From Malassezia furfur (lineage: Eukaryota), in the NCBI GenBank assembly GCA_052055015.1, contig JBQJIT010000010.1: a DNA stretch of 20,000 nt. One strand, 5' to 3'. Below, piece by piece: positions 1-18,528 of the stretch; the first letter of the stretch is position 1; every line of letters starts with the position of its first letter. Position numbers and translations under genes: made by a program. The notes under the pieces were generated by a model. That model worked only from the letters and a program-made list of their open reading frames with translations. It searched no databases and was not told the DNA's origin.

Positions 1-70
1 GTCGCGACCCCGGGCGCCTTCCTCTCTGCCATCACACCCCAGCGAGGCACTCGGACCGGATACAAACAAT

Positions 71-1577
71 ATGGTTAGCAGATAAACGCGGCGATGCGTT
101 CAGGATCCGGAACGACGGAAGTTGTGCCACTTGTCATGTGCGGCAACGCCATGCATCAATGACTGCATCTCTGGACTGCCGCGGAGCCATGGCGGCCTAG
201 CCACGTAGCGCCGCGCCGCGGAGGCGCCCTGCGTCGTGAACACGGGGCGTGCGGTGCGGCGGCTCGATGCGACACGGGTGCGACATGTCGACGAGCAGTG
301 GCCTGGAATAAGGTCCGACGATGCGCGCCGTCCACACCCCACTCGGTCGGACAGTCGGTGGGCCGTGGACGGCACCGATTTGCAAGGTGCGAGCTGTACG
401 TGCGTGGTGGGTGTGCCCGTACGACGGCGTCCGTACGGGAGGGGACGGTGCCTATGTGGCGCTGTGCCGTGTCGAGGCCCAGGCCGCGCCGTGGGCGGCC
501 TGTAGGCCCGTGCGATGCAAGAGCGTCGGACGGACGCGAGATGAGACATGGGTGGCCCTGCCTGAGGCGTAGGGTGGCGTACGAGAGCAGCAGCTGCGGG
601 CACCTGCTGGCGGAGGTCTGCCGTCCCGCGCCGTGTCTGCCCCTCCCCTGCCTCCCGGTGATGATCCGAGATGCAGTCATTGAGCGTGAGCCAGGGCCTG
701 TAGCGCCGATGCGCTGCGAGGAAGGTTCCTGGCTCGGCCCGTGCGATGCGGGCCGTGCATCGCGAGAGGCGATGGGATGCGCGTGTCGCTGGACAGAGCG
801 ACCGACGCCGGTCCTGACGTGGAGCCAGCGCGAATGTGTTGGAATGTGTACTTACCCCGCTATTTTTTTCGCTGACAGTCTACGAACCTTGACAAATGTA
901 CGTTGTGCCCACTGACGCAGCCCTTGACGACATCATCTCGACGAAGCGCAAGCAGACGCCCCGTCGCCCCGCGAAGCAGTCGAGCGCCAAGAAGAACAAG
1001 GGTGCCAAGGCTGCTGCGCTCGGTGGCTCGGCCGCTGCGGCTGTCAGCAACGCTAACCGCCAGCAGCCGCCGGTCGTGTTCCCGGGGCGCAACCAAAAGG
1101 GCCCGGGCAGCAAGGTGATTGTGAGCAACCTGCCCGTGGACGTCACCGAAGCGCAGGTCAAGGTACGTGCATCTGCTTATATGCCAGGAGCTCTTCTCGA
1201 CGACGATCGGCCCGCTGCGCCGTGCGCTGATGAGCTACAAGGCCAACGGCCAGTCGACCGGTGTGGTTACGGTCGAGTTCCAGCGCGCCGAGGATGCCAA
1301 CCGCGCGTATGCGCAGTACAACAACCGCCTGATCGACAGCAAGCGGCCGCTCAAGATTGAGGTCGTGGTCGACCCTGCCCGCGCGACGCCCGCGATCGCG
1401 GCCAAGCCCGCGGCCAACAAGGCGACCAAGAACAAGGCGGCCAAGAAGGGCGGTGCCAAGAAGGCTGCACCGCGCACGCCCAAGACCGTCGAGGACCTGG
1501 ATGCCGAGATGGAGGACTACGCAAAGCAGGGCGCGTCGGAGAATGCGCCGATGCAGGACGCCCAGCCGGCCGCGTAA
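71..1577 (+). CDS. YRA1: RNA-annealing / mRNA export adaptor, Yra1/Mlo3/ALYREF family. Proposed exons 71-73, 879-897, 921-1162, 1188-1577 (217 aa)
   Basis: The spliced product reads M-STNLDKSLDDIISTKRK (N-box, cf. yeast Yra1 MSANLDKSLDEII), then an RRM (KVIVSNLPVDVTEAQVKELF...GQSTGVVTVEFQRAEDANRAYAQYNNRLID..PLKIEVV) and a C-box KTVEDLDAEMEDY. GT-AG introns restore the frame. Exons 2-4 are well supported. Exon 1 (ATG at 71 in an A-rich context, ACAAACAAT-ATG-GTTAGC) is the only ATG-GT I found upstream and is less certain. Confidence 0.88.
74..878 (+). other. Predicted long first intron of YRA1 (805 nt)
   Basis: Donor GTTAGC directly follows the ATG. The 3' end TATTTTTTTC-GCTGAC-AG (U-tract, branch point, acceptor) joins in frame to TCT ACG AAC CTT GAC AAA. 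The acceptor is well supported. The donor is inferred. Confidence 0.65.
150..688 (+). repeat. Long-range inverted repeat / RNA stem: arms 150-186 and 652-688, perfect 16-bp core 156-171 with 668-683
   Basis: TCAATGACTGCATCTC (156-171) is the exact reverse complement of GAGATGCAGTCATTGA (668-683). It extends with bulges and G-U pairs to about 33 bp. Confidence 0.85.
898..920 (+). other. YRA1 intron 2 (23 nt)
   Basis: GTACGT...CACTGACGCAG. Removal gives LDK-S-LDDII, the conserved N-box. Confidence 0.9.
1163..1187 (+). other. YRA1 intron 3 (25 nt)
   Basis: GTACGT...GCCAG. Removal joins ORF 896..1360 to ORF 1167..1577 as QVK-ELF within the RRM. Confidence 0.9.
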
Positions 1578-1705
1578 ATAGAGTCGTCGACCGTAGTTTG
1601 CGATGCGACGCCGTGGGACGTGGCGAGGGGCCCGTGGGGCGGGGCGCGTGACGCTGCGCCCGCGTACCTGTGCCTCCACTTTCGCCGACCGACCGTGCGC
1701 TGGAC

Positions 1706-4700
1706 ATGGGCGAGCCGGGCAGGGGGCGACGTGCACCGCGCGCGGTGCCTGCCTCGCCGCTGTTCGTCGATGCCGAGTTTGCCAAGATGCGTGAAGCGGC
1801 GCCCAGTCCGCCCGGATCGAGCGAGGGCGTCGCGGCGCTGAACGCAGCGCTACTCCAGGCACAGATCTCGTCGCCGATCGTCTCGGCCTCGGCCTGGGAC
1901 GAGGGCGCGGAGCCGGACCGCGCGGGCACACGGCTCACCGAGCTCGTTGAGGAGCTGCACAGGTGCCCGCCGACCGACTATTCCGAGATGGTGCGTCGCC
2001 GACGCTGACCCAGCTCCGCATTACCACCGACGTACACCATGTGCTCATCGAGCACCGCGGCGCGGCGCGCGTCTACGAAGGATTTGGGCGCTACGGCGGG
2101 TTCCTTGTGGTGATGCAGGTACTCTCCTTTCTGCAGCTTGGTGCGGACGATGCGGCGCGCGTCATGCGGTCGCAGCTGCTGCTTCGAACGCTGACGCTGC
2201 TGTGCGATGCCATTACCTACAGCCGCACGAACCTCTTCTCGTTTGCACACATGCCCGGCTGGGATGGTTTTCTGCACTCGCTCGAGCTTGCGGCGGACGC
2301 GGGTGCTGCACAGACCACCGCGAGCCGCCTGGTCGCGCTGCTCTTTGGCCTTGCGACCGGCGACGTGGCGGGCGGTGCGCAGCACTTTGGCGTGGTATGG
2401 CGCGCGCTGCCCGACGTGCTTGCGCCCGATGCCACGGTCGCTGACGTGCGCATGCGCCTGCCACACTGGCGCACCCATGCCCTTGTGCATCCACGCGCCA
2501 TTGAGGGCGCGCTGCGCATCGCCGCGGCGGACGACGCCGTGCTGCTTGCGTCGTATGCGCTGCTCACCGACCTCACCGGCGCACCACGCAACGTAGTTGT
2601 GCTCGCGCGCTCGTCCTTGGTCTCACGCATGCTGCGTGCGTGGCTCGACGAGGGCGTGCCGGCGACGCCCACACGCACGCTCGTGCACGCGTGGCGTGCG
2701 CACCTGCTTGAGACGGTGCTGTGCGACGGGATTCGTTCCTCCGAGGATGTGCAGCTTGTGCTGCAAATGCTCACAAGCACGCCGCTCGACACACAGCTGC
2801 CGCTGCTGCACCTGCTACGCGGCGTCGCGCGCTCGGCGTACCGCCCAAGCGCGCTGACGTTTGCGCCGAGCACGTCGCCTGGTGGCGGCGGCGCCTACGT
2901 TGCGGCGCTGCGGCGCGCTTTTCCGCCAGAAGACGCGCGCTCGAGCGGCTACTCGCTGGCGGTCACGCTGCGTGTCGACCATGCAGACGGCGATGGGACG
3001 CTCGACCTCGTGACGATCGGCGACCGTGTGCGCCTCGCGCTCGACCTGCGCACGCTGCGCCTCGTGTATGCCACGGCGGCGCCCATGACGCTCGAGCGCG
3101 CACAACTGTTGCTGCACACGTGGCACCACGTCGTGCTCACGCACGCGCGCGCACCGGCGCACTCGCCGTCGACACTGCACGTGTACGTCGACGGCCAGCG
3201 TGTCGCGAGCGTGCAGGCAGTCTACCCTGCGACGCTCGCACGCGCGCCGCTGCTCGTCGGCTGTGCACCGAATCAGCCTGGTGTACGTGCGGCGCACCCC
3301 GCCTCGGCGACGTGGCTGCTGAGCTCGCTGCTGCTCCAGGACGGCGTGATGCCGTCGTCGGTGCCGCTGCTTCTCGCCCTGCTCCCGCCGCAGTACATGG
3401 GCAACCTGCAGGGCGCGCTCGCGCGCTTTCTGCCGTACGCGGCGCAGGCGCGCATGGAGCGCCGCCTCGCGCAGCTTGCCGCGGCCAACGCCCATGCACT
3501 AGGCCACGGCGAGACGCGTGCGTACGCGGCGCTGCACACGGCGCTGCACGATGCGGGCGCCGCCGTCTTCCCCCTGGCGCACGTGTACATCCACCTCGGC
3601 GCAGCACACACCCTGCGCACCGCGACGGGCGTGCTGCTGCTCGACAAGGCCATGCCGAGCGTCGATGCGGCGGTGCAGTCGCCCGGCGGGCACGCCCGCA
3701 TCCTGGGTGTGCCGACCATCACCGTGCCGCGCGACGTCGGCGACGCGGTGTGGTCCGCGGGCGGCGCTGTGGGCCTGCTGCAGCTCGTCGAGCGGGCCGA
3801 GTCGGGCGCGGCGCTCGAGGCATGCGTGCGCCTCTTCCTCGAGCTGGTGAGCCGCACGTGGCGTCTCGCGGCGGACGCCGAGCGCGCACGGGCGTACCAT
3901 GTGCTCGGGTTGCTGCTGCGCGACCGCGCAGCGCGGCTCACGCGCGGCACGCTTGACGCGTTGCTCGATGCGTGTGTTGTACGGGGTATGCTGTGCAACG
4001 TGCCGCTGTACCGTGCCGTGCTCCTCGACGCGTGTCTCTGGGCGCAGACGTCGCACGAAGTCCAGGATGCGTACCTCGCGCACTTCCGCACCGTGCTGCG
4101 CGGTGCGACGGGCGCCAGCAACGCACAACGCCTCGCCAAGTCGCCCGTCCTGCGCCACGTGCTGTACGTTGCGCGCCTCGCACCGCACCGCGCGGACGCA
4201 TTGCAGGCGCCGCTCGCCGACGCCGTGCACGTCGTTCTTCATGCGCTGGTCTCAGCCCGCTCGGTTCAAGCGCTCTTGTTGTTTGTGGTAGCTTACCTTG
4301 CACCCTGGACGCCGCCTGCACCGCTGCACGGCACCGCACGTACCGACGCCGACGAGGTGCGCAGCGTCGAATGCGCTGCCGTACAGGTGCCGCCCGCACA
4401 GCCGTCCCCGGACGCGCGCCTCGCACGCCTCGCACACGCGCTGCTGCTGCGCTTTGTGGACGTGTACGCGGGCGATGCGGGGCGCCTTGCACGTCTCGCG
4501 CGGTGGCCGTGCGCGCGGCGGCTCGTGCTGCTCGTGCGTCCCGGCATGGCGCCGGACGTCGCGGCGCCGGCACTCGCTCTCATCGCGCAGCTCCTCCCCC
4601 ATGCACGTTTCCGCGAGCAGTGGGATGCGCACGGCGGATTCCGTGTGCTGGAGCGCGCACTGCCGCCCATGTGGGATGCGCCCGACGTGCTGCCGGCGCT

Positions 4701-7700
4701 GTGGCACATGCTGCTCGGCGCACGCGAGCCGCGTGCATCGCTGTATGCGACGTATGCACCGCGCTTGCCGCCGGCGCCGCTTGCGTGCCCCGCGGCGCTG
4801 CGTGTGCTGCTGTTGTGCATCGCCGAGGGTCTCGCGCACGAGCGCACCGAGGTGCGCCACCGGCGCCGCTCGCTGCCGACCTCGCCACAGCAGGCCGCGG
4901 CGTCCGCTCGGCGCGTGCGCCTGCAGGAGTCGGTGCAGCTGCTCGTTGCGTACGCGCCGCACCCCGAAATGGCGCGTGGCCTGCTCGTCGCCCCGTCGCT
5001 GCTGTGCCTTCTGCACGCGCTCACACCGCTGCTCGCCATGGACGGCGCGCCACCCAGCGCGCTCGTCACGGTGCTGTGCACGGACCTGCTCGAGATGCTG
5101 GCGGCGCGCATCGCCGCGTCCATCACCGCGAGCGGCACCATCTCGCTGCTGACGAGTGCGCACCAGGCGATGCCTACGCCTGATCCCGTACTGCAGTCGC
5201 GGCTATGTGCACGGCTGTACACGCGCGTCGTGGCGCACGTCTTCCCCCTGCCAAGCGCGACGCGGCGTATGCTGTCGATGGGCGCCGCGCTGCTCAAACT
5301 CGCGACGAACGAGTCGATCGGGGATGTGCCGCTGCAGAACGAGCTGTTTGTTGCCGGCGCACACCTGCTGGACGCGGCCGCCGCGCACCCAGGCTACCTC
5401 ATGCCGCGCTCGGCGTCGCAGGCGGCCGCGGCGATGCAGCGCAATGTCCTGCATGCATTTGCAAGCACGCCCCTCGATGCACGTACGTCGCCGCCGTGCG
5501 TGTTCTGCGCGACGTACTGGGCGCACCTCGAGGCAGACACGCCGTTTGCGCAGTGCGTCGCGAACCGCACCGTTGCGCGCATCCGCACCGTGTGGGATGG
5601 GGACGCAGCCACCACGCTCGTCCTCCTCGCCGAGACGCACCCCGAGGTGGTGGCCGAGGGTGCCTTGATGGAGCTGGTTGATGCGCTGCGCCATGAGCAC
5701 TCTCTATCCCTGCCCATGCCGCCGTTCGCTGAGGTGTGGGCGGCCGCCGAAAGCGACCAGGCGCTCTTCCGCCGCGGACTGCACCTCGACCGTGTGGCGC
5801 AGCTGCATACCTCGCTGTTCAAGCCGAGTGCGCGTGCCCAAGGCATCCTAACGACACACGCGCGCCTCACTCAATGGCACGCGTCCGTTGCCGAGACGGA
5901 CCGCGTGCAGTTTGCGCGCTATGCCCAAGATCTGCGCGACGATGCGCACTACGTGCGCCAGGCGTGGCTGGACGCGAGCGAGGCGCTGGCGCTGCAGCGC
6001 GGCGCGCCGCACGACTGGCAGCTCGATCCCACCGAGGGCCCCGGGCGTGCGCGACTCAAGCTCTTCCCCGTGATGCCGAGTGATGCTGTGCCGACGGAGC
6101 GCAGTGCGGATGCGGCGCTTCCCAAGGAGCTTGCCGAGCTGGCGCCGGACGATGTGGGCGGGACGTCGGATGCGGCGCTCCTCGATGATGCCCAACTCGC
6201 TGCCGAGATCGAGGCGGGCACTGCGCCGCCCGAGGCTGCGCCGGCCGCCCCAGCGCCGGCCGGTGCGCCGCCAGGCGCCCCTGCACCCGAAGCGCCGCCC
6301 GTGCCGCTGCCTGACGACGCGGACGACACGTACCGCATCGTGTTGCGCTCGCTGCATCCCGGCGAAACCGCCGAGGCGCTCATCAACGCGTCGCGCGTGC
6401 TAGGCATCGAGACGCGGGGCTGCCTCGTGGTGGCGAGCGCGGAACACCTATATGTGCTGGACGACTACTTCCAGCGCCCCTCGGGCGAGATTGTGCATGT
6501 AGCCGATGTGCCGACCGCCGAGCGTGACGAGCTGATCGCGGCCGCGTTTGCGTCCGCACAGCCGTCGACCACACCGCTCGAGCACGCCGCGGTGCTGTGC
6601 TGGGCCTGGGACGCCCTCACGCTGTGCCTCCGCCGCGCATGGCTGCACCGCCGCACGGCGCTCGAGCTGTTCTTTGCGGACGGGCGCAGCTGTCTGCTCG
6701 TGTTGGCCGACGCCGCCCACGTCGAGCAGGTGCTCACGCTCGTGCGCGCCAAGGCGCGGCGGGCGCTCACCGAGGCAGAGCGCATGATCGACGGCCTGCG
6801 CGAGCCGCCCAGCGTCCCGCATGCCGCGCAGCGCCTCCCCGGTGTGCTCCGCCGAACGCACGCTGTGGCGCCAACGACGCGGGCGTGGCAGGAGGGCCGC
6901 CTATCGAACGCGGCCTACCTTATGGCGCTCAACACGCTCGCGGGCCGCACGATGAACGACCTCACCCAGTTCCCCGTGTTCCCGTGGGTCATCGCCGACT
7001 ACACGAGTGGCACGCTCGACCTCGACACCGCCACGACTTTCCGCGACCTCGCGCGGCCCATGGGTGCGCAGACCGAGGCGCGGCGAACGGACAGCGCCGA
7101 GCGCTACCAGCAGCTGGTCGAGGTCAACATGGACCCGTTCCACTACGGCACGCACTACTCGACGGCCGCGAGTGTGTGCGGCTTCCTGGTGCGCCTGCGC
7201 CCCTTTGCGCACTGGCTCATCGAGCTGCAGGGCGGCAGCTTCGACCTTGCCGACCGCATGTTTGCCTCGGTCGGCCGCGCGTTCCACTCGGCCTCGGCGC
7301 AGGCGCGCGGCGACGTGCGTGAGTTGATCCCCGAGTTCTTCTTCCTCCCCGAGCTCTTTGTCAACACGAACCACTTTGCGCTCGGCCGCACGCAGGCCGG
7401 CTCGGCGATCGGCGACGTGGAGCTGCCGCCGTGGGCGCACGACGACCCGTGGCTGTTTGTGCAGCTGCACCGCGAGGCCCTAGAGTCGCCGTACGTCAGT
7501 GCGCACCTCCACGCATGGATCGACCTCGTGTTTGGGTACAAGGCGCGAGGCCAGGCGGCCGTCGACGCCCTCAACGTGTTCCACCCGCTGTCGTACGCAG
7601 ACAGTGTGGACGTCGCGCGCATCGACTCGCCGCTCGAGCGCGAGGCGGCTGCCCAGGTCATCCACAACTTTGGGCAGACTCCGCGCGCGCTGTTTGCACG

Positions 7701-8826
7701 CCCGCATCCGCCCCGCGACGTGCGCACGGTCGACGACCTTGCGCGCACGCCGCACCTGCTCGTCCCGGCACGCGGACCTGCCGCGCAGCTCGGCGCACCG
7801 GTGCACGCGCTCGGCGGCACGCCCACGGCCGTACGTGCCGCGCGGCGCGGCGAGGCACTGTTCCCTGGCGCCCTGCTCACGTACGGCCACCTCGACGGCT
7901 CCATGCACGTCGTCCCCACGCAAACGCCGCACACGCCGCACGTCACCGAGCAGGCGGCGCCCGCCCGCATCACGGCCGTCGCCATCGTCGGCACGACGCA
8001 CGTCGTCGTCGGCGCCGAGGACGGCACGGTGCAGCTCTTTGGGCTGCACACCACGCGGTCCGAGCTCGAGCCGTGCACAGTCTGGTCGGGCCATGCGGCG
8101 GCGGTCGTGTGTGCGGCCGCGAGTGCGACGTGGCGCATCGCCGTGACGGGCGCGGCGGACCATACGGCGATCGTGTGGGACGTGACGCGCCAGCGGTACA
8201 TCCGCACGCTCCGTGGGCATGCCCAGCCGCTGGCGCACGTTGCGATCGACGACGAGCGCGGCTACATTGCAACGGCGGCGGGCGACGAGGTGTGCGTGTA
8301 CTCGATCAACGGCCATCTCCTCGCACGGCAGAGCACACGCGCGGCGACACGCCGGCCCCTGAGTGCGCTCGCGTTCTGTGCGCGTGACTTTCACGTCGGC
8401 GGCCTCGCTGTGCTCGTTACGGGGCACGCGGGGCAGCTGCTCGTGTGGCGCGTCGCATCGAACCACGAGGCGACGCCGAGCGACGCGCCGCGCTGGCGTC
8501 TAGCGTTGCAGGCGACGCTCGACGCGCCCAGCCAGGCGCCCATCACCGCCGTGCACGTCGCCACGCTCGACACGCTGTGCACCGGCGACGAGGCCGGCGA
8601 CGTGTATACGTGGTCGCTGCCCGGCGCCGCGGTGACACCGCCGCGGCTGCCCGAGGGCGTGTGCATGAACGCCGCGTGCCAAAAACGCTTTGGCTTTCTC
8701 GAGCTGAAGCGCACCTGTGGCGCGTGCGGCGGCGTGTTTTGCGGCGCGTGCACGGTGCCTTACAAGGATACCCGCCTCTGTACATACTGCGCGGCGACGC
8801 TGAGTGCGCGGGGCCTTGAGCTGTAG
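1706..8826 (+). CDS. BEACH-domain protein (Beige/Bph1/Lvs/WDFY3-like): ConA-like lectin, PH, BEACH, WD40 repeats, C-terminal FYVE-like finger. Exons 1706-1990 and 2014-8826 (~2365 aa)
   Basis: BEACH motifs WQEGRLSNAAYLMALNTLAGRTMNDLTQFPVFPWVIADY, HYGTHYS, DVRELIPEFF, VELPPWA, WIDLVFGYK and FGQTP (~6874-7716). PH motif RRAWLHRRTALELFF. ConA-like WHHVVLTH...YVDG. WD40 GH...WD repeats. Eight-Cys finger at 8662-8790. The start could instead be the ATG at 1787. Confidence 0.92.
1991..2013 (+). other. BEACH gene intron (23 nt)
   Basis: GTGCGT...GCTGACCCAG. Joins ORF 1670..2008 to ORF 1963..8826 in frame (YSEM-LRIT). Confidence 0.8.
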
Positions 8827-8892: not shown

Positions 8893-9978
8893 CTAGGCGG
8901 CGTCGCCGGTCGGTGCCGACTCGGCAATCTTTTGTTTGAGGTTGGCAATGATCGACAGGTAGGCCTCGCTTGCCGGACTGTCGGGGTGCTCATCGACAAA
9001 GCTCTCGCCGAGGTCGCAGCACTTGGCGATGCGCGGGTCGAGCGGCACGCTGCCGAGGAACGGCAGGTCCAGTTCTTTGCACAGCGCCGCGGCGCCGCCC
9101 GTCGACGGGTAAAAGATGTCGGAGCGTCCATGGCACGCCGGGCACACAAAGCCGGCCATGTTCTCGACCACGCCGAGGATCGGCACGTTCATTTTGCGGC
9201 AGAAAGAGATCTCTTTGCGCACGTCCTGCAGCGACACCTCCTGCGGCGTCGTGATGAGCACCGCGCCGTTGATGCCCGATTCGCGCAGGAAGCCGACGAT
9301 CGACAGGTGCTCGTCCGACGTGCCGGGCGGCGTGTCGACGAGCAGGTAGTCGATCACGGTCTTGGGCGCGTCCGGCCCGAGCTCGTCGGCGAGGCCGCCG
9401 GACCAGTCGACATCCTTGAGGAACTGCTTGATCAGCCCGTTCTTCTTCGGCCCGCGCCAGATGATGGCGCTGTCGGTCGAGGGCAGAAGGAATTCGATCG
9501 ACATGCACGCGAGGTTGTCCGAGACGTAGACGGGCGACCACCCCGACGAAGACGCGTGGATCAGCTGGTTGCGCAGGCCCAAAATCGTCGGGATCGACGG
9601 GCCGCACACGTCAATGTCCATCACGGCGGTCTGCGTCGCCTCGTCGCACGCAAACGCCCAGGCGAGCTGCGCGGTAAAGGTGCTCTTGCCGACGCCGCCC
9701 TTGCCGCTGAGGATGAGCACCTTGTTCTTCACGCATGCCATCCGCTCGCGGATCAGCGGCAGATCGGGGTCCGGGCCCTTGGGCGCCGTCTGGCACGCAT
9801 TCTGGTTAGGGCAGCCCTGGCAGGCGTCGGCCTTGCCGGCCTGTTCGGATTCCACACCCGGGCAGTGCTCCGGCGCGTTCTCCGGCACCTGGTCCGGGAG
9901 CGCACGCGCGATCGCCTCGGGCGGCTCAACACGCGTTATGGGCGCGAGCGGCACCGGTGGCGCACGCACATCGACCAT
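8893..9978 (-). CDS. NBP35: Cytosolic Fe-S cluster assembly scaffold NBP35/NUBP1 (361 aa, no intron seen)
   Basis: N-terminal ferredoxin-like Cys motif PEHCPG...[11 protein letters not shown], which distinguishes it from Cfd1. Also deviant Walker [40 protein letters not shown] and [11 protein letters not shown]. Start at ATG 9978 (MVDVRAP). Confidence 0.95.
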
Positions 9979-10015
9979 GGTAGCAATCCAACAACGATCG
10001 CGCCATCGCGCTGAC

Positions 10016-13000
10016 TCAGCTATGGGGAACCGCCGCGAACATCGTGTGGAGGGTCGCGTGCAGCAGGGGGAAGTCGTGGAACTCGGCGAGGGCGCGCGCC
10101 TGGTGCAGGCGGCGCAGGGTATCGTGGGGCGGTGTCTTGTGCACCCAGGCGCCGGAGCACTGGCAGTACGGTGCGAGGTTGCTGGTGCGCATCCGCCGGC
10201 ACCGCGCGCAGTGCACGTCCTGCACGGCGTGCTGCGCGACATGCTGCTGCACCACCTGGATGAGGCGCATCTCGATGTTTGCGCGGTCGTAAGGGAAGTC
10301 GCAGCGCGAGCAGCGCCACTCGCGCGGCGTCTGCGCGGCACTTGCGATCAGGTCCGCGTCACGGCATAGGTCGAGCGTGCGGTCGTCGTTGCAGAACTGG
10401 CAGATGACCCACGGCAAGCGGAAGGACAGACAGGGGTTGCGCCACTCGGCCGCAGGCGCAAACTCGCGCACGCCGATCAGGTCGAGCAGGTTGCGCTTGC
10501 ACACCTGCGCCTCGAGCGCGCACTCGCGGTGCAGCGCGAGGATGCGCGTCGTCGCCTTGATGAATTCCAAGGCGGGGTTCGTCAGCGAAAGGTGCGAGCC
10601 GGGTAGCTGGGGGAAGGCCCATGCCGCGGCGTCGTGAGCGTCGGGCGCCTTGAGCTCGGTCTGGATCGCCTGCACGGTACGCAGCAGGCGGCGCGTCATC
10701 GTCTCGGCGATGATGTGGCGCACGTCGTCGGCGTGCGACGGCGCCGCCAGCGCCGCCTCGGCCTTGTCCTCTGCCTCCTGCGAGGCCGCAAGTCGTGCGG
10801 TACGCATCGTCGGCCGCCCGTTTTGCAGGGCGACGGCGCGCTGCTTCGCCTTGTACAGCTCGTAGATATACGATCCGATGGCCTTGGCGAAGCGCGTCTG
10901 CACCGCCGGCGGCAGGAACTCTTGCACGTTCCACGCCATCTCGATGTCAAACTGCTCCGTGGGCACGAGCGCGTCGGGCTCGTGGCAGATGACGCCGCCC
11001 ATGTTGGCGATGTCGAGGAACACGAGATACTCCCAGAAGTGCACGATGCTCAGCCCCAGGTGCTTGAACAGCTCGCGCCCCGTCACGGCGCTCAGCAGGT
11101 AGCGCCCAAACGCCGCGGCGCTCCCCGCCGTCGGCTTGTTGGTCAGGAGGAAGAGGCGCGTGTAGGAGGCATACACCACGCTCACGCCGAGCCGCCGGAA
11201 CTCGGCGAGGAGCTGCAGCATCGTCTTGCGCATGAGCCGCTGCAGGAAGCGCTGCAGCGCGGGCTCAAACAGCGCCGAGCGCGTGCTGCACGCCCACCGC
11301 CAGAAGTTGTCGGCGAGCAGCGCGCCGTACGTGGACGTGCCGCGCGTCTTTTCCACGTGCCACGCCTTGACCATGGCGCGCACCGTCGAAAAGGTCTGCG
11401 CGGTGAGCACCGCATCGCCGAGGTCCGCCGAGAGCGGCACATCGCCCTGTGCGTACTCGTCGAGCGTGTGCGAGGCTGACTCGAGCGCGAGCGACGCGCC
11501 GCCCGTGCCCTCCATCGCGTTCACCGAGGCGTACTGCAGCACCACGTCGAGCGCCAGGTCGGTGAGCGCGACTTCGAGGCAGACGTTTTCGTAGGCGCCC
11601 GCGTTGGTGATCTCGAGCGTCTCGAGCTCGTCGGCGTGCCCGGCGTGCGCGTCGAGCTCGCGCCCGCCGAGATCCGGCAGCGCAGACGGCGACCACCACA
11701 GCACCATGTCGTTCTGCTGCAGGCGGCGCGCAAAGTCGAGGTCGCTGCCAAACACGGCAAAATCGCGCGGCAGGTTGCACAGCGGCACGTCGAGGTGCGC
11801 ACCGAGCTCGACCCACCGCGCAATCCACGCGGCGGTGCGCAGGTAGCAGTTCACGAAGCGGCGCGCCGCATACAGCTGCCACCCGAGCGCGGAAAACGCG
11901 TCCTCCTGGCGCGCCGCGGGGATCATCAGCACGGGCAGCTGCGCGCTGACGTGCAGGTGCGTGTCGTAGTACGACAGCGGGCGCGACGAGCAGACCGCGA
12001 GCTGCGTCGGCATGGCGCGCAGCGCACGCAGCTCCTTGAGGTCGTGCTGCAGCGCACGCAGAGCGCGCGCCTCGGTCGTGTGCACCTGCACGTGGTCGGT
12101 GTGCACCGCCGCGGGGTAGTCAAACGCGCCCTCGCCGTCGACGACGCGCCCGGCGCGGCGCATCGCGTCGAGGCGCTCGGTGTACAGTGCCTCGACGCTC
12201 GGCCACTGCTTGAGCCCCGCCGAGTCGACGAGGTGCACACGCACGGCGCCTTCGGGCGCCACCAGCACCAGCACGTGGCGGCGGTCGAGCGACGCATGGT
12301 ACAGGTACAGGTGGCGCAGCGCGCGCCCGTGCTGCAGGTAGGTCGCCGAGGGCAGCGCCACGTGCATCAAGTCGGCGAGCGGCAGCCCGGCGTCCAGCGC
12401 GTGGCTCAGGCGCGACGCGCGGCTCGGCTGCAGCGCACACGCCGCGCCAAGCTGCAGCAAGGCGCGCACGTCGAGCGGCACGTGCCGCTCGAACACGCCG
12501 TCGACGTGGGGGTGGTGCAGGAGCGTGGCAAAGTGCGTCTCCTCCTCGACAAACACCTCCTCCGGGACGGTGAGCTTCACGAGGTGCCGGCACGGCACGC
12601 CGCGTGGCAGCGTGCGCGTCACCGGCTCCACGGTATAGCGGTCCAAAAAGGCCTCGGGCGGCGGCGCGTGCTTGAAGTTGACGTACAGCTCACGTGGCAC
12701 GAGCAGCTTGAGGCACTGCAGCTGCCGCGCCACGTACACCCACAGCCGGAACTCGCCAGGGCGCGGCGTCGCAGCCAGCTGCACCACGTCCCACGCGCTC
12801 GCGGCCATCGCGGTGCTGCGCTGCGTGAGCATCGCATGCAGCGTCCCGGCGCCCGCGCCGGCACTGGGCTGGCCCGTGCGCCGCGCCGCGCGCTGCTGCC
12901 GCCAGCGGACGCGCATCGCCGCGACGTAGCCGGGGTAGTCGACGTGCAGGTCGGGCACGGGCGGGAGCGGCGCCGGGGCCGGCGGCGCAGCGCGCTCCAC

Positions 13001-16000
13001 GGGCGCGGGCGCCGCAGGCTTGGCGCGCTGGCGCACCGCGTCGCTTTGCATCAGCGTCGCGAGCTTCACCTGCGTGTGCTTGTCGGTGCGCGATGCGACG
13101 CGCTTGAGCAGCCAGTCGGGGTGGCGCACGCGCGGCACAGGGTTCGGCACCTTTTGCATCGCCGCGGGGATTGTGATGAGCTTCTGGATGACTCCCGCAA
13201 AGCGCTCAATGTAGTAGTCCCAGTCAAGGATGCTGCGCAGGTCAAAGTCGGTGATGCTGCTGTCCTTGAGGAAGCGCCGCAAAAAGTGCTCCTTGACCGG
13301 CTGCTCCGCGTTGAAGATCGCCACGGGCACGGCGCGGTCGGTGACAGGCGCGCCGTACGGCTTGGCAGACACGATAAACTTGCACGCCAGGCCCTTATCC
13401 TTGACCACTTGCTGTCCCAGAATCTCGGCGAGGCGGCGCGCGGTGGTGATGGCGGTCGACTTTTGCGTGCCGTACTCGCTGAGGAGCTTCGACATGCTCT
13501 TGTTCTCGGCAATCAGGTCAATCAGCTCCTCGTCGTGGAGCGTCGAGCCCTTGGAGTAGAGCACGTCGAGCCACTGGTTCGCGACCTGCGCCACCGCCGC
13601 ATAGCAGCTCACCAGCGAGTCGCCCAGCAAAAACTTGCTAAAGATTTGCTTCTGGAAATCCTTGATGAGCTGCAGCTCGCCACGCCGCTTCACTTCGAAG
13701 CCTTTGAGCTCGGCAAGCGAGCCGTCTTCCTCAAACACGGCGTAGCGCTTCTTGAGCAACTTGTCCTCCTCCTTGCTCGACGGCAGAATCATCGCGCGGT
13801 AGGGGCCGTCCAGCTCGAAAAAGATACTGTTCTCGCTGTGCACCGCATATTTGCCCGTGCGAGGGTCGACGAGGTCGTGGTACTGGTGGTTCGTGAAGCG
13901 CTCGTGCACACGGTAGTTGAGCATCGTACACGGGTACGACACGCCAAACTTTTTGCCATTCGCAAGCGTGAACGTAAAGTTCTCGGGGAAGGTGCCCGGA
14001 AGCATGCACCAGATGCCGTCCGTGTCGAGCTCGAGCGGACGGCCGATGCGGTCGACAAGCTCCTTGGCCATCTGGATGATCGTAGCACCCGTCAGGCAGG
14101 TGATGCCCGCCATCTCCATCGAGTACCATCGCGCGCCTTTGCGCATGACGTAGCCGTAGAAGGAGTTCAAGATACACTTGTGCGCGAGCTGCAGCGAGTC
14201 GTACAGCACAATCATCTTTTTCGCCTCGAGCGTGTCGGCGAGGCTGCCCGCCGAGTGCGCCTTGTCCAGGTTCTTCTTCCAGGTCTTGTGCAGGCCCTTG
14301 TACTCGTACCGCCGGTCGCGGAAGTCGCGCACCGTGTTGATGTAGAACGGATTCTCGCGCTGGCAGATGATCGCTTCGCGCACCACCGTCTTGGTGTCGT
14401 GCACGCGCTTGTACACCTTGCGGCTGTACTCGGCCAGGCGGCGCTGCAGCAGCGCCGAGCGCTCCGCGGCGCTCAGCTCCGCGAACCGCCGCGGCTTTCC
14501 ACGGGGGTCCTTCGCGGGGAACGTCTCCATGTCGAGCGCGTGTTGGATCATGTTGATCTCGTCGCGCTTTGCGGGGAAGTACTCGCCACGCCACGCCCAC
14601 TTCATGCGCTTGTCGCACGACATGCCCGGGCGGTTGTAGTCACACGACGCACACGTCCCCTCATCCACGACCGAGTCGGGCTGTAGGCGGTTGGAAAGCA
14701 TGATGTTGGGGTACATGGCCGCAACGTCCAAGTGGTAGATTAGCGGCTTGTCCTGCCGCACGGGACGGTCGCGCAGAGCCTCCAGCATCGTCTGGATCTC
14801 ACGCTTGACCTCGTCAAAGTTGGTCACGTCGTCGAACGACAGCTTGCCCTCCTCGCGGATGCTGAAGCGCAGCGCGCCATCCAGCTCGTCAATCAGCGTC
14901 TGGAACGCCTCGGGCTCCAGACGGAAGTCGGTGGGAATGTCGCTGCGGAAGACGCCGGCCTCGAGCGCCTCGACGTGCCCGCCGACGTACGTCTCGGACT
15001 CGAGCAGGTGGCCCTCGTACGTGTTGCCGATCGGGTCCTGGTGCCGGTTGGGCATCAGAATACCGCCCTTGTACGCCTGCACCATCAGCAGCGTCTCGCA
15101 CAGCGTGCCCGAACCCTTGCGCAGCACCTCGTCGGGGTTCAACGGGATGATGTTGCACAGCGAGAAAATGAACGGGTGCACGTACTTCATGTACAGGTAG
15201 TACGTCGCCACCGCATCGGACACGGAGTACTGTGCGAGCGTCTGCGGCTGCTCCGAGGCATACGGCGTCATCAGCTCGGGGTCCAGCTCCATTGGGTCGT
15301 ATCCGAGCTTGGCCACGGTCACCGCCTTGAGGCCCTGGCTGCCCTGCGGCAGGTACGAGTCGCGCTTCACCCACCGGAAGCAGTCGAGGTGCGCACAGTG
15401 CCGGCTCTTGAACTCGTTGTCCGAGTCCATCGCGAAGCCGATCTCCTGCTCCATGTCGAGGCCACGAATGCGCGCGCGCGTTTGCACAAACGGAAAGTCG
15501 AACGAGTCACCGTTGTACGTCGCAATCACCGTCGGCCGCGCCTCGCGCACATGATCAAAGAAGCGGCGCAGGAGCGACACTTCGTTGGGCTCGTTGAAGA
15601 TGACAAACGGGCCTTCGTACTCGTCCTTGGGCGTGTACTCGAAGTCGTCGATGTCCTCACTGATCACCTCGCGGTTCGTAATGAGGAAGCCCTGGCCATC
15701 GATCATGTACGAAATCATCATCACCACGTCCGACTCGGCGTCGGGGAACTTGAGCGGCTGCTTCGTCGTCTCGATATCGAACGCCATCACCACCGGGTCC
15801 GCACGCTTGACGCGCTCAGGCACAGGCTGAAGCTCCACGGTGCCTTCGTGGAAGCGCACATCATACCACAGTCCAACGCGGATTTCTGCCGTTAGTTGTA
15901 CACGCACGATTGTCGATCGCCACACGCAAGTAGTACGGCACATCGTACTCGTACAGCGCCGCGATACACTGCTCGGGACTTCGCCCGCCCGTGCGCTTGT

Positions 16001-17285: not shown

Positions 17286-18308
17286 TTAGTAGTTGTTGTA
17301 GCCACCGCCGCCGTAGCCACTGTTGTAGCCACCGCCGCCCATGCCACCACCCATGCCACCACCCATGCCACCGCCCATGCCACCACCGCCGTAGCCGCCG
17401 CCCATGCCGCCGCCCGCGGCGCGGCGCGTCAGATAGAACAGCAGGCCGGCGAGGATCAGCGTGGGCGCAAAGTGCAGCAGCGTCGACGCCATGCTGATCG
17501 ACTCGTGGTACGACACAGGGATGCGCTCGTTCGACGGAATGCCCAGCTCGCGCTGTGCGTCGTCCAGGTGGCGCTCAAACGCCTCGACCGAGCCCACGCT
17601 GAACCAGTACTGCGGCGCGCCCATCAGGCTGCCGCCCGGCGCCGGCGAGGCGCCGCCCGTCGCGTTGTTGTGCAGGTACACCTGCACCTTGGCACGGTTC
17701 ACCACCACGAGGCGGTCGACGAGGCCCTTGTCGAGGAACGCGGAGCGGAACTCCTGCCACGTAATCTCACGCGACATGGGCTCCGGCGAGGTGTAGCGGT
17801 ACAGGATGTAGGTCGTGATCGCCGTCGCGATGATAAAGTTGAGGTTCAGGCGCAGCTCCTGCGGCTGGTTGCCGTTGGGGTTCGGCTTGCCACCGGGCTT
17901 GCCGCTCGACGCGTTCGCGCCGTCGTCGCCCTTGTCGGCATCGCGTCCGCGCGCCTGCTTCGAGGCACGCGCGTCCTTGGAGTCCTGCGCGCGGTCGTTG
18001 CGCTCAAAGAACTGCTTCAGCTCCTCGGGGACATCCTCCTTCTTCGTCTTCTTGCCCTCCTTGGCCTCGCGGATGCCGCGCTCAAGCGACTCGTGAAACT
18101 CTTTGCGCTTCTTCTCTTCGGGGTCGGGGTCGGCGGGCGTCGCGTACGCACGCACCGCGCCGAGGCGGCCGGCGCCCGAACGGGGCACCGACAACGCCAC
18201 AGCGCGGGGGAGGTGCGAGCGCGCCGACGCCATACGCAGCATCGACGCGCCCGGCATACGCATCCGCACCGCCTGCAGCGGAGCTCGTGCTAGGGACGGT
18301 GTCGACAT
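17286..18308 (-). CDS. Truncated or chimeric mitochondrial m-AAA protease subunit (AFG3/YTA10 or YTA12 type): presequence, TM1, intermembrane-space domain, TM2, then a Gly-Met-Tyr tail (340 aa)
   Basis: Arg/Ala/Ser-rich presequence ending RAYATP. TM1 FIIATAITTYILY. REITWQEFRSAFLDKGLVDRLVVVN...FSVGSVEAFERHLDDAQRELGI...IPVSY is typical of the FtsH extracellular domain of m-AAA subunits. TM2 FAPTLILAGLLFYL. No Walker A/B or HExxH follows. Confidence 0.8.
   Translation of the reverse strand: MSTPSLARAPLQAVRMRMPGASMLRMASARSHLPRAVALSVPRSGAGRLGAVRAYATPADPDPEEKKRKEFHESLERGIREAKEGKKTKKEDVPEELKQFFERNDRAQDSKDARASKQARGRDADKGDDGANASSGKPGGKPNPNGNQPQELRLNLNFIIATAITTYILYRYTSPEPMSREITWQEFRSAFLDKGLVDRLVVVNRAKVQVYLHNNATGGASPAPGGSLMGAPQYWFSVGSVEAFERHLDDAQRELGIPSNERIPVSYHESISMASTLLHFAPTLILAGLLFYLTRRAAGGGMGGGYGGGGMGGGMGGGMGGGMGGGGYNSGYGGGGYNNY
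17299..17415 (-). repeat. Gly-rich coding repeat (GGGM/GGGY units, 12-bp period)
   Basis: Plus-strand CC(A/G)CCCATGCCA tandem units at about 17335-17385, and GCCGCCGTAGCC and GTTGTAGCCACCGCCGCC duplications. Confidence 0.85.
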
Positions 18309-18528
18309 TAGCACGTCGACCAGTGCACGGACAGGTCAGATGAGGCCGTCCGCGGTGGGGTGTAGGCTGGCGTGGCCGCGATCGATCTGCGCCACCCAGC
18401 GCGCTCGGTGCACGTGCCTCGGCCGAGGGTACGCGCCCGTGCATATGCGGAGCGCCAAATCGCAGACGACGACGCGCGCCGCCAGCGAGAAAAAGCGTGT
18501 GGCTCGCGCGCAGAAGCAACGCGGGGTC

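Follow-up and report, generated by a model that had tools for sequence, protein, structure and literature searches.

A lineage-specific long-range stem in the oversized first intron of a Malassezia YRA1 gene and its possible part in splicing

The first intron of YRA1 in Malassezia furfur begins directly behind the start codon, is 805 nt long and contains an inverted repeat far beyond chance, whose two arms are predicted to form a stable stem of 33 pairs. The position of the intron and its length class are conserved in two related species. We tentatively read the stem as a lineage-specific zipper or loop-out helix in the YRA1 pre-mRNA, which would make an abnormally long regulatory intron spliceable. 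We infer for this reading that the helix may form in vivo, that it may aid or modulate splicing and that the intron may be autoregulatory. Among genes restrained by an oversized intron of their own, YRA1 is the textbook example, to our knowledge in ascomycete yeasts only so far. The whole stretch of DNA analyzed, 20,000 nucleotides, is called the window below.

The YRA1 gene and its long first intron

The gene in the 20-kb window was identified as YRA1. Its best homologue is YRA1 of Malassezia furfur (96% identity), and exon 4 matched the Pfam families RRM_1 (E = 1.2e-7) and FoP_duplication (E = 5.5e-5). The spliced model encodes 217 amino acids without internal stops and aligns end to end with the proteins of relatives, and with these domains and this best match the host gene passes as a Yra1/ALY/REF orthologue. 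Yra1 is an essential mRNA-export adaptor of the Yra1/ALY/REF family and an RNA-annealing protein. Transcription of YRA1 possibly starts upstream of the window. The gene model and the predicted intron structures are listed in Table 1.

Table 1. Features of YRA1 and of its first intron (positions in the window)
Feature	Position	Strand	Basis
End of exon 1: 5' UTR, rich in pyrimidines, with the start codon ATG at 71-73	1..73	+	ATGGTTAGC at 71
Intron 1 (phase 0), 805 nt, beginning right behind the start codon	74..878	+	Orthologous introns, spliced model
Intron 1 signals: 5' splice site GTTAGC, CTGAC, AG	74-79, 872-876, 877-878	+	
Outer helix, 5' strand; part 96-114 pairs with 806-820; holds GGATCCGG	96..141	+	MFE fold
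Stem, 5' arm; perfect core 156-171	150..186	+	Inverted-repeat search, fold
Enclosed domain, GC-rich and heavily self-paired, 465 nt	187..651	+	Fold; no family match
Stem, 3' arm; perfect core 668-683	652..688	+	Inverted-repeat search
Outer helix, 3' strand; CCGGTCC at 808-814	779..820	+	MFE fold
Conserved intronic motif GGAATGTGTACTTACC (in relatives GGAACAGTGTGCTTAC, GGAATGGAGTACTTAC), U-rich tract behind	841..856	+	Local match
Exon 2, 19-nt micro-exon, codes STNLDK and first base of next codon	879..897	+	NLDKSLD[DE]II
Intron 2, 23 nt	898..920	+	
Exon 3	921..1162	+	
Intron 3, 25 nt, within the RRM	1163..1187	+	RRM_1 match goes on in exon 4
Exon 4: remaining RRM, FoP/C-terminal box, stop codon	1188..1577	+	Pfam

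The very short exon 2 was placed at 879-897 because the N-terminus NLDKSLD[DE]II is conserved in relatives (P0003, P0007). This exon is preceded by AG and an in-frame stop, TGA at 873-875, and coding sequence must therefore reach it via splicing. The orthologous locus L001, from another Malassezia, has a 19-nt exon 2 as well, and a scan of 25 other fungal loci for the N-terminal exon motif found it in L005 alone. Translation of unspliced YRA1 RNA yields four residues (Met-Val-Ser-Arg) and then a stop. Other starts were considered and rejected. A first exon from ATG 671-673 to the GTGAGC at 686, which lies within the 3' arm of the stem, would be in phase and was dismissed because the junction ATG/GTTAGC is common to all three species. 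Starting at ATG 896 (reading through intron 2) or at ATG 844 (the start used by the M. furfur model) loses the conserved NLDKSLD motif. At least one public gene model of YRA1 lacks exon 1 together with a portion of the RRM.

We compared the first intron with those of L001 and of a second Malassezia locus, L004. The sequence ATGGTTAGC is present once in the window, once in L001 (at 3204) and once in L004 (at 3316), upstream of YRA1 each time, and the ATG/GTTAGC junction is found in all three loci. The first introns of L001 (3207-3673) and L004 (3319-3721) are 467 and 403 nt long, whereas the remaining eight introns of the three genes measure 23-32 nt. Hence the same gene has, in three Malassezia species, a first intron of 400-800 nt as against about 25 nt for its other introns, and intron 1 of the window is far above ordinary length and long in both related species too. 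Ordinary introns of the genus run to about 25-30 nt, and the curated mean intron of M. sympodialis is given as 30 bp in Table 2 of PMC5389616. At the 5' splice site, C is found at +6 in all three first introns and in none of the eight others, eleven introns being too few for a consensus. Intron 1 may be poorly spliced. Further Malassezia YRA1 loci were not found among the genome-contig and viral-contig collections searched. The first-pass annotation had placed the stem inside a YRA1 intron, which the comparison of predicted gene structures bears out.

The introns of the window, L001 and L004 can be aligned in short blocks only; when the three intron regions were aligned with MAFFT, the ATG/GTTAGC anchors fell out of register and the alignment was discarded. 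The intron of the window matches that of L004 locally at 85% over 20 nt, coinciding with the motif at 841-856, which occurs in L001 too and is implied in P0001 of M. furfur and in P0122. The GGAATGTGTACTTACC region is possibly a true or alternative branch site. Two of the tiny introns of L004 have CTTAC ahead of their 3' splice site. Two branch-point candidates are seen in intron 1 of the window, CTGAC at 872-876 and CTTAC at 851-855. In the window, L001 and L004 alike, reading by eye showed CCGGTYC at 24-30 nt upstream of the conserved motif GGAAY...CTTAC.

The 33-pair stem and the domain that it closes

The inverted repeat described in the first-pass annotation was recovered in full. The 16-bp cores at 156-171 and 668-683 are 100% complementary, with the arms 496 nt apart, and the four extensions proposed for them pair as claimed, giving 33 pairs, of which 30 are Watson-Crick and three G-U (152-686, 177-660 and 178-659), without mismatches inside the paired segments. 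Searching the 20-kb window for the arm sequence with up to three mismatches returned two matches, which are the two arms, against 0.09 expected. When the 805-nt intron was shuffled 60 times with its dinucleotides preserved, the longest perfect inverted repeats came to 8-11 nt, compared with the 16 nt observed, and the repeat is far beyond chance. A 14-nt direct repeat (505-518/736-749) is borderline with respect to chance (E = 0.12).

When region 150-688 was folded and compared with shuffles, a check that had been suggested for the stem, it reached -304.5 kcal/mol (z = -5.0) and none of 100 shuffles was as good. The fold of the whole intron keeps the stem, with mean pair probabilities of 0.96 (151-176/663-687) and 0.92 (178-189/649-659). 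In folds of partial transcripts, local pairing already occupies the 5' arm (mean pairing probability 0.63-0.74), so that formation of the stem would need refolding.

The G-U pairs had been taken as a sign of RNA structure rather than a DNA repeat, and this argument is weak. The best duplex of the arms has -56.3 kcal/mol on the plus strand and -55.3 kcal/mol on the minus strand, on which the three G-U pairs are C-A. The minus strand of 150-688 likewise folds better than shuffles (z = -3.6), and the probability that three of three transition mismatches fall as G-U by chance is 0.125.

Because the domain is so strongly structured and is closed by a terminal helix like many stable RNAs, it could be an intron-hosted structured non-coding RNA, snoRNA-like or other, with its ends set by the stem, but we consider this highly improbable. 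High GC alone gives strong folding for any sequence here, and Rfam returned no match at E <= 1 for window positions 1-2000. The sole Rfam match in L001 and L004 was a weak sR44 with 19.7 bits (threshold 45) far from the intron, the enclosed domain is not conserved in either locus, and no C/D or H/ACA box arrangement was seen when the arms were read by eye. With no Rfam match and a domain that is not conserved beyond close relatives, the earlier suggestion of an undescribed structured RNA found no backing. The long open reading frames at 298-912(+) and 159-680(-) matched no Pfam family.

Distribution and possible origin of the stem

We searched for counterparts of the stem in relatives. The introns of L001 and L004, which come from two more distant Malassezia, contain no sequence counterpart of the arms. 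The 3' arm is unchanged in the closely related lineage of P0122, where 16 consecutive residues of the minus-strand translation over 646-693, covering the whole arm, are identical. In the central part, about 85% of the residues of this lineage (P0122/P0125) are identical, and since 16 unchanged residues at 15% residue divergence have a chance probability estimated at about 0.07, the conservation of the 3' arm is not significant. Among three same-lineage variants, three residues vary, none of them in the arms. The 5' arm of the P0122 lineage was sought with a 167-aa minus-strand ORF, which gave no match, and with a 65-aa plus-strand ORF, which gave five matches (E 1.7e-5 to 9.8e-4, 27-43% identity, proteins of 548-1442 aa), none of them looking orthologous. 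As far as sequence comparison goes, the stem is lineage-specific and seen only in close relatives.

The window intron is 340-400 nt longer than its orthologues (805 nt compared with 467 nt in L001 and 403 nt in L004), so that the stem may be no more than part of an insertion specific to the lineage. In such a case, the unit at about 150-688 would be a foldback or MITE-like insertion or an inverted duplication within an already long intron, and its pairing would be an unselected by-product that at most renders the insertion harmless. We regard this as unlikely on balance, while giving it real weight. The distance from GGAYCCGG to CCGGTYC, two motifs shared by the three loci, is by eye about 697 nt in the window and 290 and 228 nt in L001 and L004, and both of these relatives lack the arms. 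The perfect 16-bp core with its decaying flanks resembles a fairly young inverted repeat, the repeat has a weak 57-nt extension at 68% identity, the arms have 44% GC in surroundings of roughly 70% GC, and the stability of the duplex is equal on both strands.

Several observations argue against an insertion of this kind. The unit has the terminal inverted repeats of MITE or foldback elements (16-bp core, 33 pairs), but there is no target-site duplication in the sequence, as no direct repeat lies beside 150/688 or 156/683. The 20-kb window contains no second copy of the arms or the domain. A 174-aa minus-strand ORF spanning the unit led to only two clusters among 357 candidates and gave no sign of dispersed copies; this search covered 5.8 billion protein clusters within the bounds of ORF calling and a length band of 95-305 aa. 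P0122 maps to the YRA1 intron locus and runs into unique flanking intron, and P0121, at the protein level, matches the 174-aa ORF over its full length with 99% identity. The unit is older than the split from the lineage that is about 85% identical at the residue level. Finally, each of the three pairs that are not Watson-Crick is G-U on the strand that is transcribed, which is a weak point (p = 0.125).

Intron architecture, possible roles and known systems

The whole intron is predicted to fold at -429.1 kcal/mol (z about -6) into three stacked long-range helices, of which the 150-186/652-688 stem is the innermost and strongest. The helix 96-141/779-820 has 35 bp with bulges (mean probability 0.76), and the helix 74-93/856-876 has a probability of 0.66. 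According to our tentative proposal of a loop-out helix, the stem would loop out the central 465 nt of intron 1 and stack on these two helices, and the three together would fold the intron as a rod with the 5' splice site adjoining the branch-point region. The long intron itself might serve feedback control of the Yra1 level, by analogy with yeast YRA1.

We compared these helices with the zipper stems of Saccharomyces cerevisiae as they are defined in the consulted parts of PMC12350175. The 33-pair stem agrees with the definition in its position, since within one intron both arms lie downstream of the 5' splice site and ahead of the branch point, and it also agrees with the second point of the definition, its 3' arm being 166 nt from the branch point at CTTAC (A854) or 187 nt from that at CTGAC (A875). 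The linkers of zipper stems total 42-85 nt (PMC12350175), a rule that the stem does not follow, with 76 nt on the 5' side and 166 or 187 nt on the 3' side (about 242-263 nt in total). The 15-bp helix 96-114/806-820 fits this geometry, with linkers of 22 and 55 nt. The first-pass idea that most of the intron is looped out is plausible, the stem being predicted with high probability and stacking on two outer helices, but the linkers of the stem by itself lie outside the zipper geometry, and it has no sequence counterpart in L001 or L004.

A helix of zipper geometry is predicted in all three introns (15 bp in the window, 17 bp in L001 and 11 bp in L004). Any such helix was present in 8 of 50 shuffles of the window intron and in 20 of 150 for both L001 and L004, and one of equal or better free energy in 2 of 50 (window), 0 of 150 (L001) and 9 of 150 (L004). 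The complementarity between the 5' and 3' zones of 150 nt was reached by 1/40, 0/40 and 0/40 shuffles of the window, L001 and L004. The stability of the L004 intron is shuffle-like (z = -0.35, with 35 of 100 shuffles folding as well). In the MFE fold of the window, the graph distance separating the branch point from the 5' splice site is 5 compared with 10.1 +/- 4.6 in shuffles, 20% of which are as short, and the corresponding fractions are 36% for L001 and 71% for L004. The graph distance does not tell the real introns from shuffles and was therefore abandoned as a criterion of zipper function. RNAalifold applied to L001 and L004 gave 64 pairs, 24 of them changed on both sides, and this was set aside as evidence of covariation because two sequences are over-fitted. 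It also gives GGACCGGG another partner than the single-sequence folds do.

The stem could also act as a regulatory switch, in which Yra1 or some other factor either favours the stem or competes with it and so toggles splicing of intron 1 as a feedback loop. The host gene is a YRA1 orthologue, the consulted sections of PMC2864733 and PMC2911113 describe yeast YRA1 as autoregulated through its long intron, and RPL7B offers a precedent of a zipper and anti-zipper toggled by Rpl7 (PMC12311795, in part). Moreover, within partial transcripts the 5' arm can pair locally in other ways, and the non-standard 5' splice site GTTAGC is conserved in all three loci. However, no defined alternative structure and no protein-binding site were identified, and because L001 and L004 lack the stem, a switch that depends on it would be limited to the clade. 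We hold it to be very unlikely. Specifically, that the stem is the moving part, its formation being aided or opposed by Yra1 and deciding between splicing and discard of the transcript, appears distinctly unlikely to us. If it were true, there would be a structure-based feedback loop in a basidiomycete, at an intron position other than that of ascomycete YRA1 and with a regulating first intron about 27 times longer than normal Malassezia introns, and this would suggest that long introns were recruited convergently and repeatedly to control YRA1.

The Malassezia stem shares features with several known systems, and differs from each of them. As in a MITE or foldback element, inverted repeats bound a unit, of about 540 bp, that one lineage has and two others lack at the orthologous place; here the target-site duplication is lacking, no second copy was found in the 20-kb window or by the ORF-based search, and the interior is GC-rich. 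In the zipper stems of S. cerevisiae (RPS17B, RPS6B, RPL7A/B and others), a stretch lying downstream of the 5' splice site pairs with one upstream of the branch point, as is predicted here, and a shortening of the distance has been proposed; according to the consulted parts of the same reports, these stems are poorly conserved in sequence between species (PMC2536676, PMC12350175). The Malassezia stem is much longer (33 bp), would close 465 nt and is a predicted one, it belongs to a basidiomycete whose introns measure about 30 nt, and it is the predicted outer helix 96-114/806-820, and not the 33-pair stem, that fits the zipper definition. In RPL7B, the zipper stem serves autoregulation: a long-range stem in the first intron enhances splicing, and the gene's own product represses it (PMC12311795, in part). 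RPL7B has a mutually exclusive protein-binding structure, whereas no such conserved alternative was identified in Malassezia.

A further parallel lies in the YRA1 genes of the Saccharomycotina. The consulted part of PMC2911113 reports long YRA1 introns in all hemiascomycetes, with a first intron of 850 bp in Yarrowia lipolytica. Both groups share the gene family, an intron many times the genome norm, possibly non-standard splice signals and a protein that cannot come from unspliced RNA (PMC2911113, PMC2864733, both in part). In S. cerevisiae the 5' boundary of the intron is at coding nucleotide 285 (PMC2864733, in part), whereas the Malassezia intron follows the ATG. In Cryptococcus neoformans, upf1 mutants show increased retention of a YRA1 intron, according to the portion of PMC5006051 consulted. 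Within the portions of papers covered by our literature search, we found no treatment of the Malassezia YRA1 intron. That this intron is long, differently placed and equipped with a conserved odd 5' splice site and predicted long-range helices suggests that the long-intron solution for YRA1 is very old or has arisen repeatedly. For the question whether RNA structure enables a short-intron spliceosome to cope with a long intron, the Malassezia YRA1 intron also provides a clean natural test.

The YRA1 gene model and its first intron

The first-pass annotation had placed the stem in an intron of YRA1, and comparison with relatives supported this placement. ORF 1188-1574 encodes an RRM and a FoP C-terminal box, and its best relative among 126 matches is 'YRA1 [Malassezia furfur]' (96% identity), which identifies the window as Malassezia DNA near M. 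furfur. The N-terminal motif NLDKSLD[DE]II, which opens the relatives P0003 and P0007, is split by an intron in the window. An in-frame stop (873-875) lies just upstream of the micro-exon 2, hence the start codon must come by splicing from upstream. ATGGTTAGC was found once in the window, at position 71. Searching metagenome contigs with the protein of exon 4 yielded 30 loci, two of which (L001 and L004) are other Malassezia YRA1 genes. These two share a promoter block upstream of an ATG/GTTAGC junction, which is common to all three genes, and have a 3' splice site immediately before (A/S)SNLDK. Based on this junction and 3' splice site, intron 1 would span 74-878, with a length of 805 nt, and 467 nt and 403 nt in L001 and L004, respectively. 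The spliced model (71-73, 879-897, 921-1162, 1188-1577) encodes 217 residues without a stop and aligns with the relatives from residue 2 to the end. Unspliced RNA of the window would encode four residues followed by a stop. The other eight introns of the three genes are 23-32 nt long, and introns average 30 bp in the curated annotation of M. sympodialis (PMC5389616, Table 2). The 5' splice site has C at +6 (GTTAGC) in 3/3 first introns versus 0/8 other introns.

Exon 2 is flanked by introns of 805 nt and 23 nt; L001 shares this 19-nt exon, and L004 lacks the second intron. The public model P0001, named YRA1 [Malassezia furfur] by its source, seems mis-annotated: its first 12 residues are readthrough of the 3' end of intron 1, with the upstream ATG exon unused, and it lacks 18 RRM residues around intron 3 (ELFSTTIGPLRRALMSYK in the window). 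The promoter block GCTCGGGGTTTTACGGATKACCAATC, which contains a CCAAT box, is conserved in L001 (∼3025-3050) and L004 (∼3122-3150), where it precedes the YRA1 ATG by ∼170-190 nt. A small divergent gene lies on its far side from YRA1. The window begins too far downstream to include this block. The genes beside YRA1 in the window are ordinary nuclear housekeeping genes.

Features of the YRA1 locus, neighbouring genes, and helices with zipper-stem geometry
Feature	Coordinates	Strand	Details
Exon 2	879-897	+	19-nt micro-exon, STNLDK plus one base; CTGACAG directly before
Intron 2	898-920	+	23 nt
BEACH/WD40 protein	1963-8826	+	∼2287 aa
NUBP-type P-loop NTPase	8896-10341	-	
DNA polymerase epsilon catalytic subunit	10019-15943	-	
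FtsH-type protease fragment	17289-18314	-	
Helix, window	96-114/806-820		15 bp, -19.7 kcal/mol; shuffles with any such helix 8/50, equal or better energy 2/50
Helix, L001	intron positions 15-35/386-403		17 bp, -25.7 kcal/mol; shuffles with any 20/150, equal or better energy 0/150
Helix, L004	intron positions 20-33/321-332		11 bp, -12.2 kcal/mol; shuffles with any 20/150, equal or better energy 9/150

Predicted long-range pairing in intron 1

A repeat search recovered the perfect 16-bp inverted repeat reported before (156-171 and 668-683, arms 496 nt apart), and each of the extensions listed in the first-pass annotation paired as claimed. The resulting stem has 33 pairs, 30 Watson-Crick and 3 G-U (152-686, 177-660, 178-659). 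Its pairing is broken by bulged positions 155, 172, and 182 and by a short internal loop (176/661-664). With up to 3 mismatches, the arm sequence had two matches in the 20-kb window, the two arms themselves (0.09 expected). Dinucleotide shuffles (n = 60) of the 805 nt around the stem had perfect inverted repeats of at most 8-11 nt, compared with 16 observed, and the RNA fold of 150-688 reached -304.5 kcal/mol (z = -5.0), which 0/100 shuffles equalled. Hence, the inverted repeat is real and beyond chance. The argument that its G-U pairs favour a plus-strand RNA proved weak: the best arm-region duplex has -56.3 kcal/mol on the plus strand versus -55.3 on the minus strand, the minus strand of 150-688 also folds better than its own shuffles (z = -3.6), and chance alone would turn all 3/3 transition mismatches into G-U with a probability of 1/8. 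Whatever its origin, the stem would form a helix in the pre-mRNA and is predicted to be very stable. We consider it very improbable that the stem delimits an undescribed structured ncRNA hosted by the intron, as proposed before; an Rfam search (window 1-2000, E ≤ 1) gave no match.

When the whole intron was folded (MFE z-score ∼ -6), the stem persisted with pair probabilities of 0.96 (151-176/663-687) and 0.92 (178-189/649-659). Two further long-range helices formed outside it, one of 35 bp with bulges (96-141/779-820, probability 0.76) and one that joins the 5' splice site to the CTGAC region (74-93/856-876, probability 0.66). Among the helices of this predicted long-range pairing, the stem is the strongest. 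Zipper-stem geometry, with 42-85 nt of total linker outside the helix (PMC12350175), was found for the 96-114/806-820 part of the outer helix and for one helix each in L001 and L004; the linkers of the stem itself, about 242-263 nt in total, exceed this range. Complementarity between the first and last 150 nt was above shuffles, with the observed value reached in 0/40 (L001), 0/40 (L004), and 1/40 (window), and the long-range helices of the three introns share a GC-rich complementary pair, GGAYCCGG/CCGGTYC. On the opposing side, the whole L004 intron was no more stable than its shuffles (z = -0.35), and the MFE graph distance from the 5' splice site to the branch point was not unusual in the window, L001, or L004. 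RNAalifold on two sequences was set aside as covariation evidence because it was judged over-fitted.

The unusual 5' splice site GTTAGC (74-79) is complementary, with one G-U, to GCTGAC (871-876) and paired in the MFE structure; in L001 its partner is instead the GCTTAC motif, and the pairing is weak (probability 0.19). The intron also contains several strong hairpins of local sequence (327-373, 416-439, 480-502, 734-772), inside as well as outside the stem-closed domain; they are imperfect palindromes 23-49 nt long. The motif GGAAY..GTRCTTAC is kept near the intron 1 3' end in all lineages seen (window 841-856, L001 ∼3621-3636, L004 ∼3660-3676). It precedes the 3' splice site by 24-47 nt, with a U-rich tract after it. 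Since two tiny introns of L004 have CTTAC immediately before their 3' splice sites, this motif may be a real or alternative branch site, instead of CTGAC/CTAAC beside the AG. The motif may also resemble the 5' end of U1 snRNA.

Conservation and origin of the stem

The arms had no counterpart in the L001 or L004 introns. The extra length of the window intron is central, between motifs shared with these two, so the stem appears to belong to a lineage-specific expansion. Closer relatives were sought via a 174-aa minus-strand ORF running from arm to arm (159-680), which gave two clusters among 357 candidates. The first (P0121, P0123, P0124; 99% identity) is the same lineage, with three variable residues, none of them arm-encoded. 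The second (P0122, P0125) is a related lineage in which 200 residues map to positions 855-279 of the window minus strand, with a single change of frame; 77/91 residues of its central part are identical to the window, and a run of 16 identical residues over 646-693 covers the entire 3' arm (estimated chance probability of an unchanged arm ∼0.07). Hence, the unit is older than the split from the P0122/P0125 lineage, whose 5' arm was not retrieved by searches with other ORFs. Among the loci compared, the stem is restricted to the M. furfur-like clade, and any function of it is putative.

As the main rival to a function, the stem could be what neutrally remains of an insertion or an inverted duplication, which we regard as rather unlikely. 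For a MITE, the specific origin raised earlier, the sequence covered gave no sign: there was no target-site duplication at either plausible unit boundary, no second copy of the unit within the 20-kb window, and no dispersed paralogous copies in the 174-aa ORF search. Two short direct repeats, 505-518/736-749 (GGCCCGTGCGATGC, 14/14 identical) and 497-510/695-708 (GGCCTGTAGGCCCG, 86% identical), connect sequence within the stem-closed domain to the 3' flank of the intron; they are borderline chance or possibly a trace of local duplication. Predicted proteins P0121, P0123, and P0124 in public collections correspond to the 174-codon ORF (156-680), which has no Pfam match, lies antisense within the intron, and is almost certainly spurious. 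Its exact arm-to-arm span arises because the arm sequence, richer in AT, supplies an ATG at one end and a TGA at the other.

Possible roles and known systems

We tentatively favour, at somewhat below even chance, a zipper-type or loop-out role of the stem within a long regulatory intron of the YRA1 type. This role and a neutral relic are compatible, as a self-pairing insertion could be the kind that a length-sensitive intron tolerates. A switch responsive to Yra1 itself, also proposed before, seems improbable, although RPL7B provides a case of a zipper stem serving autoregulation (PMC12311795).

All hemiascomycetous yeasts are reported to have a long YRA1 intron with a divergent branch site, and the retained form of the 850-bp first intron of Y. 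lipolytica YRA1 is an NMD target (PMC2911113). In S. cerevisiae, the intron occupies nucleotides 285-1052 of the gene and contains modular elements for decay and translational repression (PMC2864733), and upf1 mutants of the basidiomycete C. neoformans show increased YRA1 intron retention (PMC5006051). Zipper stems are described as poorly conserved in sequence (PMC2536676, PMC12350175). A literature search found no paper on a Malassezia YRA1 intron; supplementary tables of the Malassezia annotation papers may list the gene model. Overall, a long-range intron stem and a long YRA1 intron are both of known kinds, and what is new here is the unexpected host and the new intron position.
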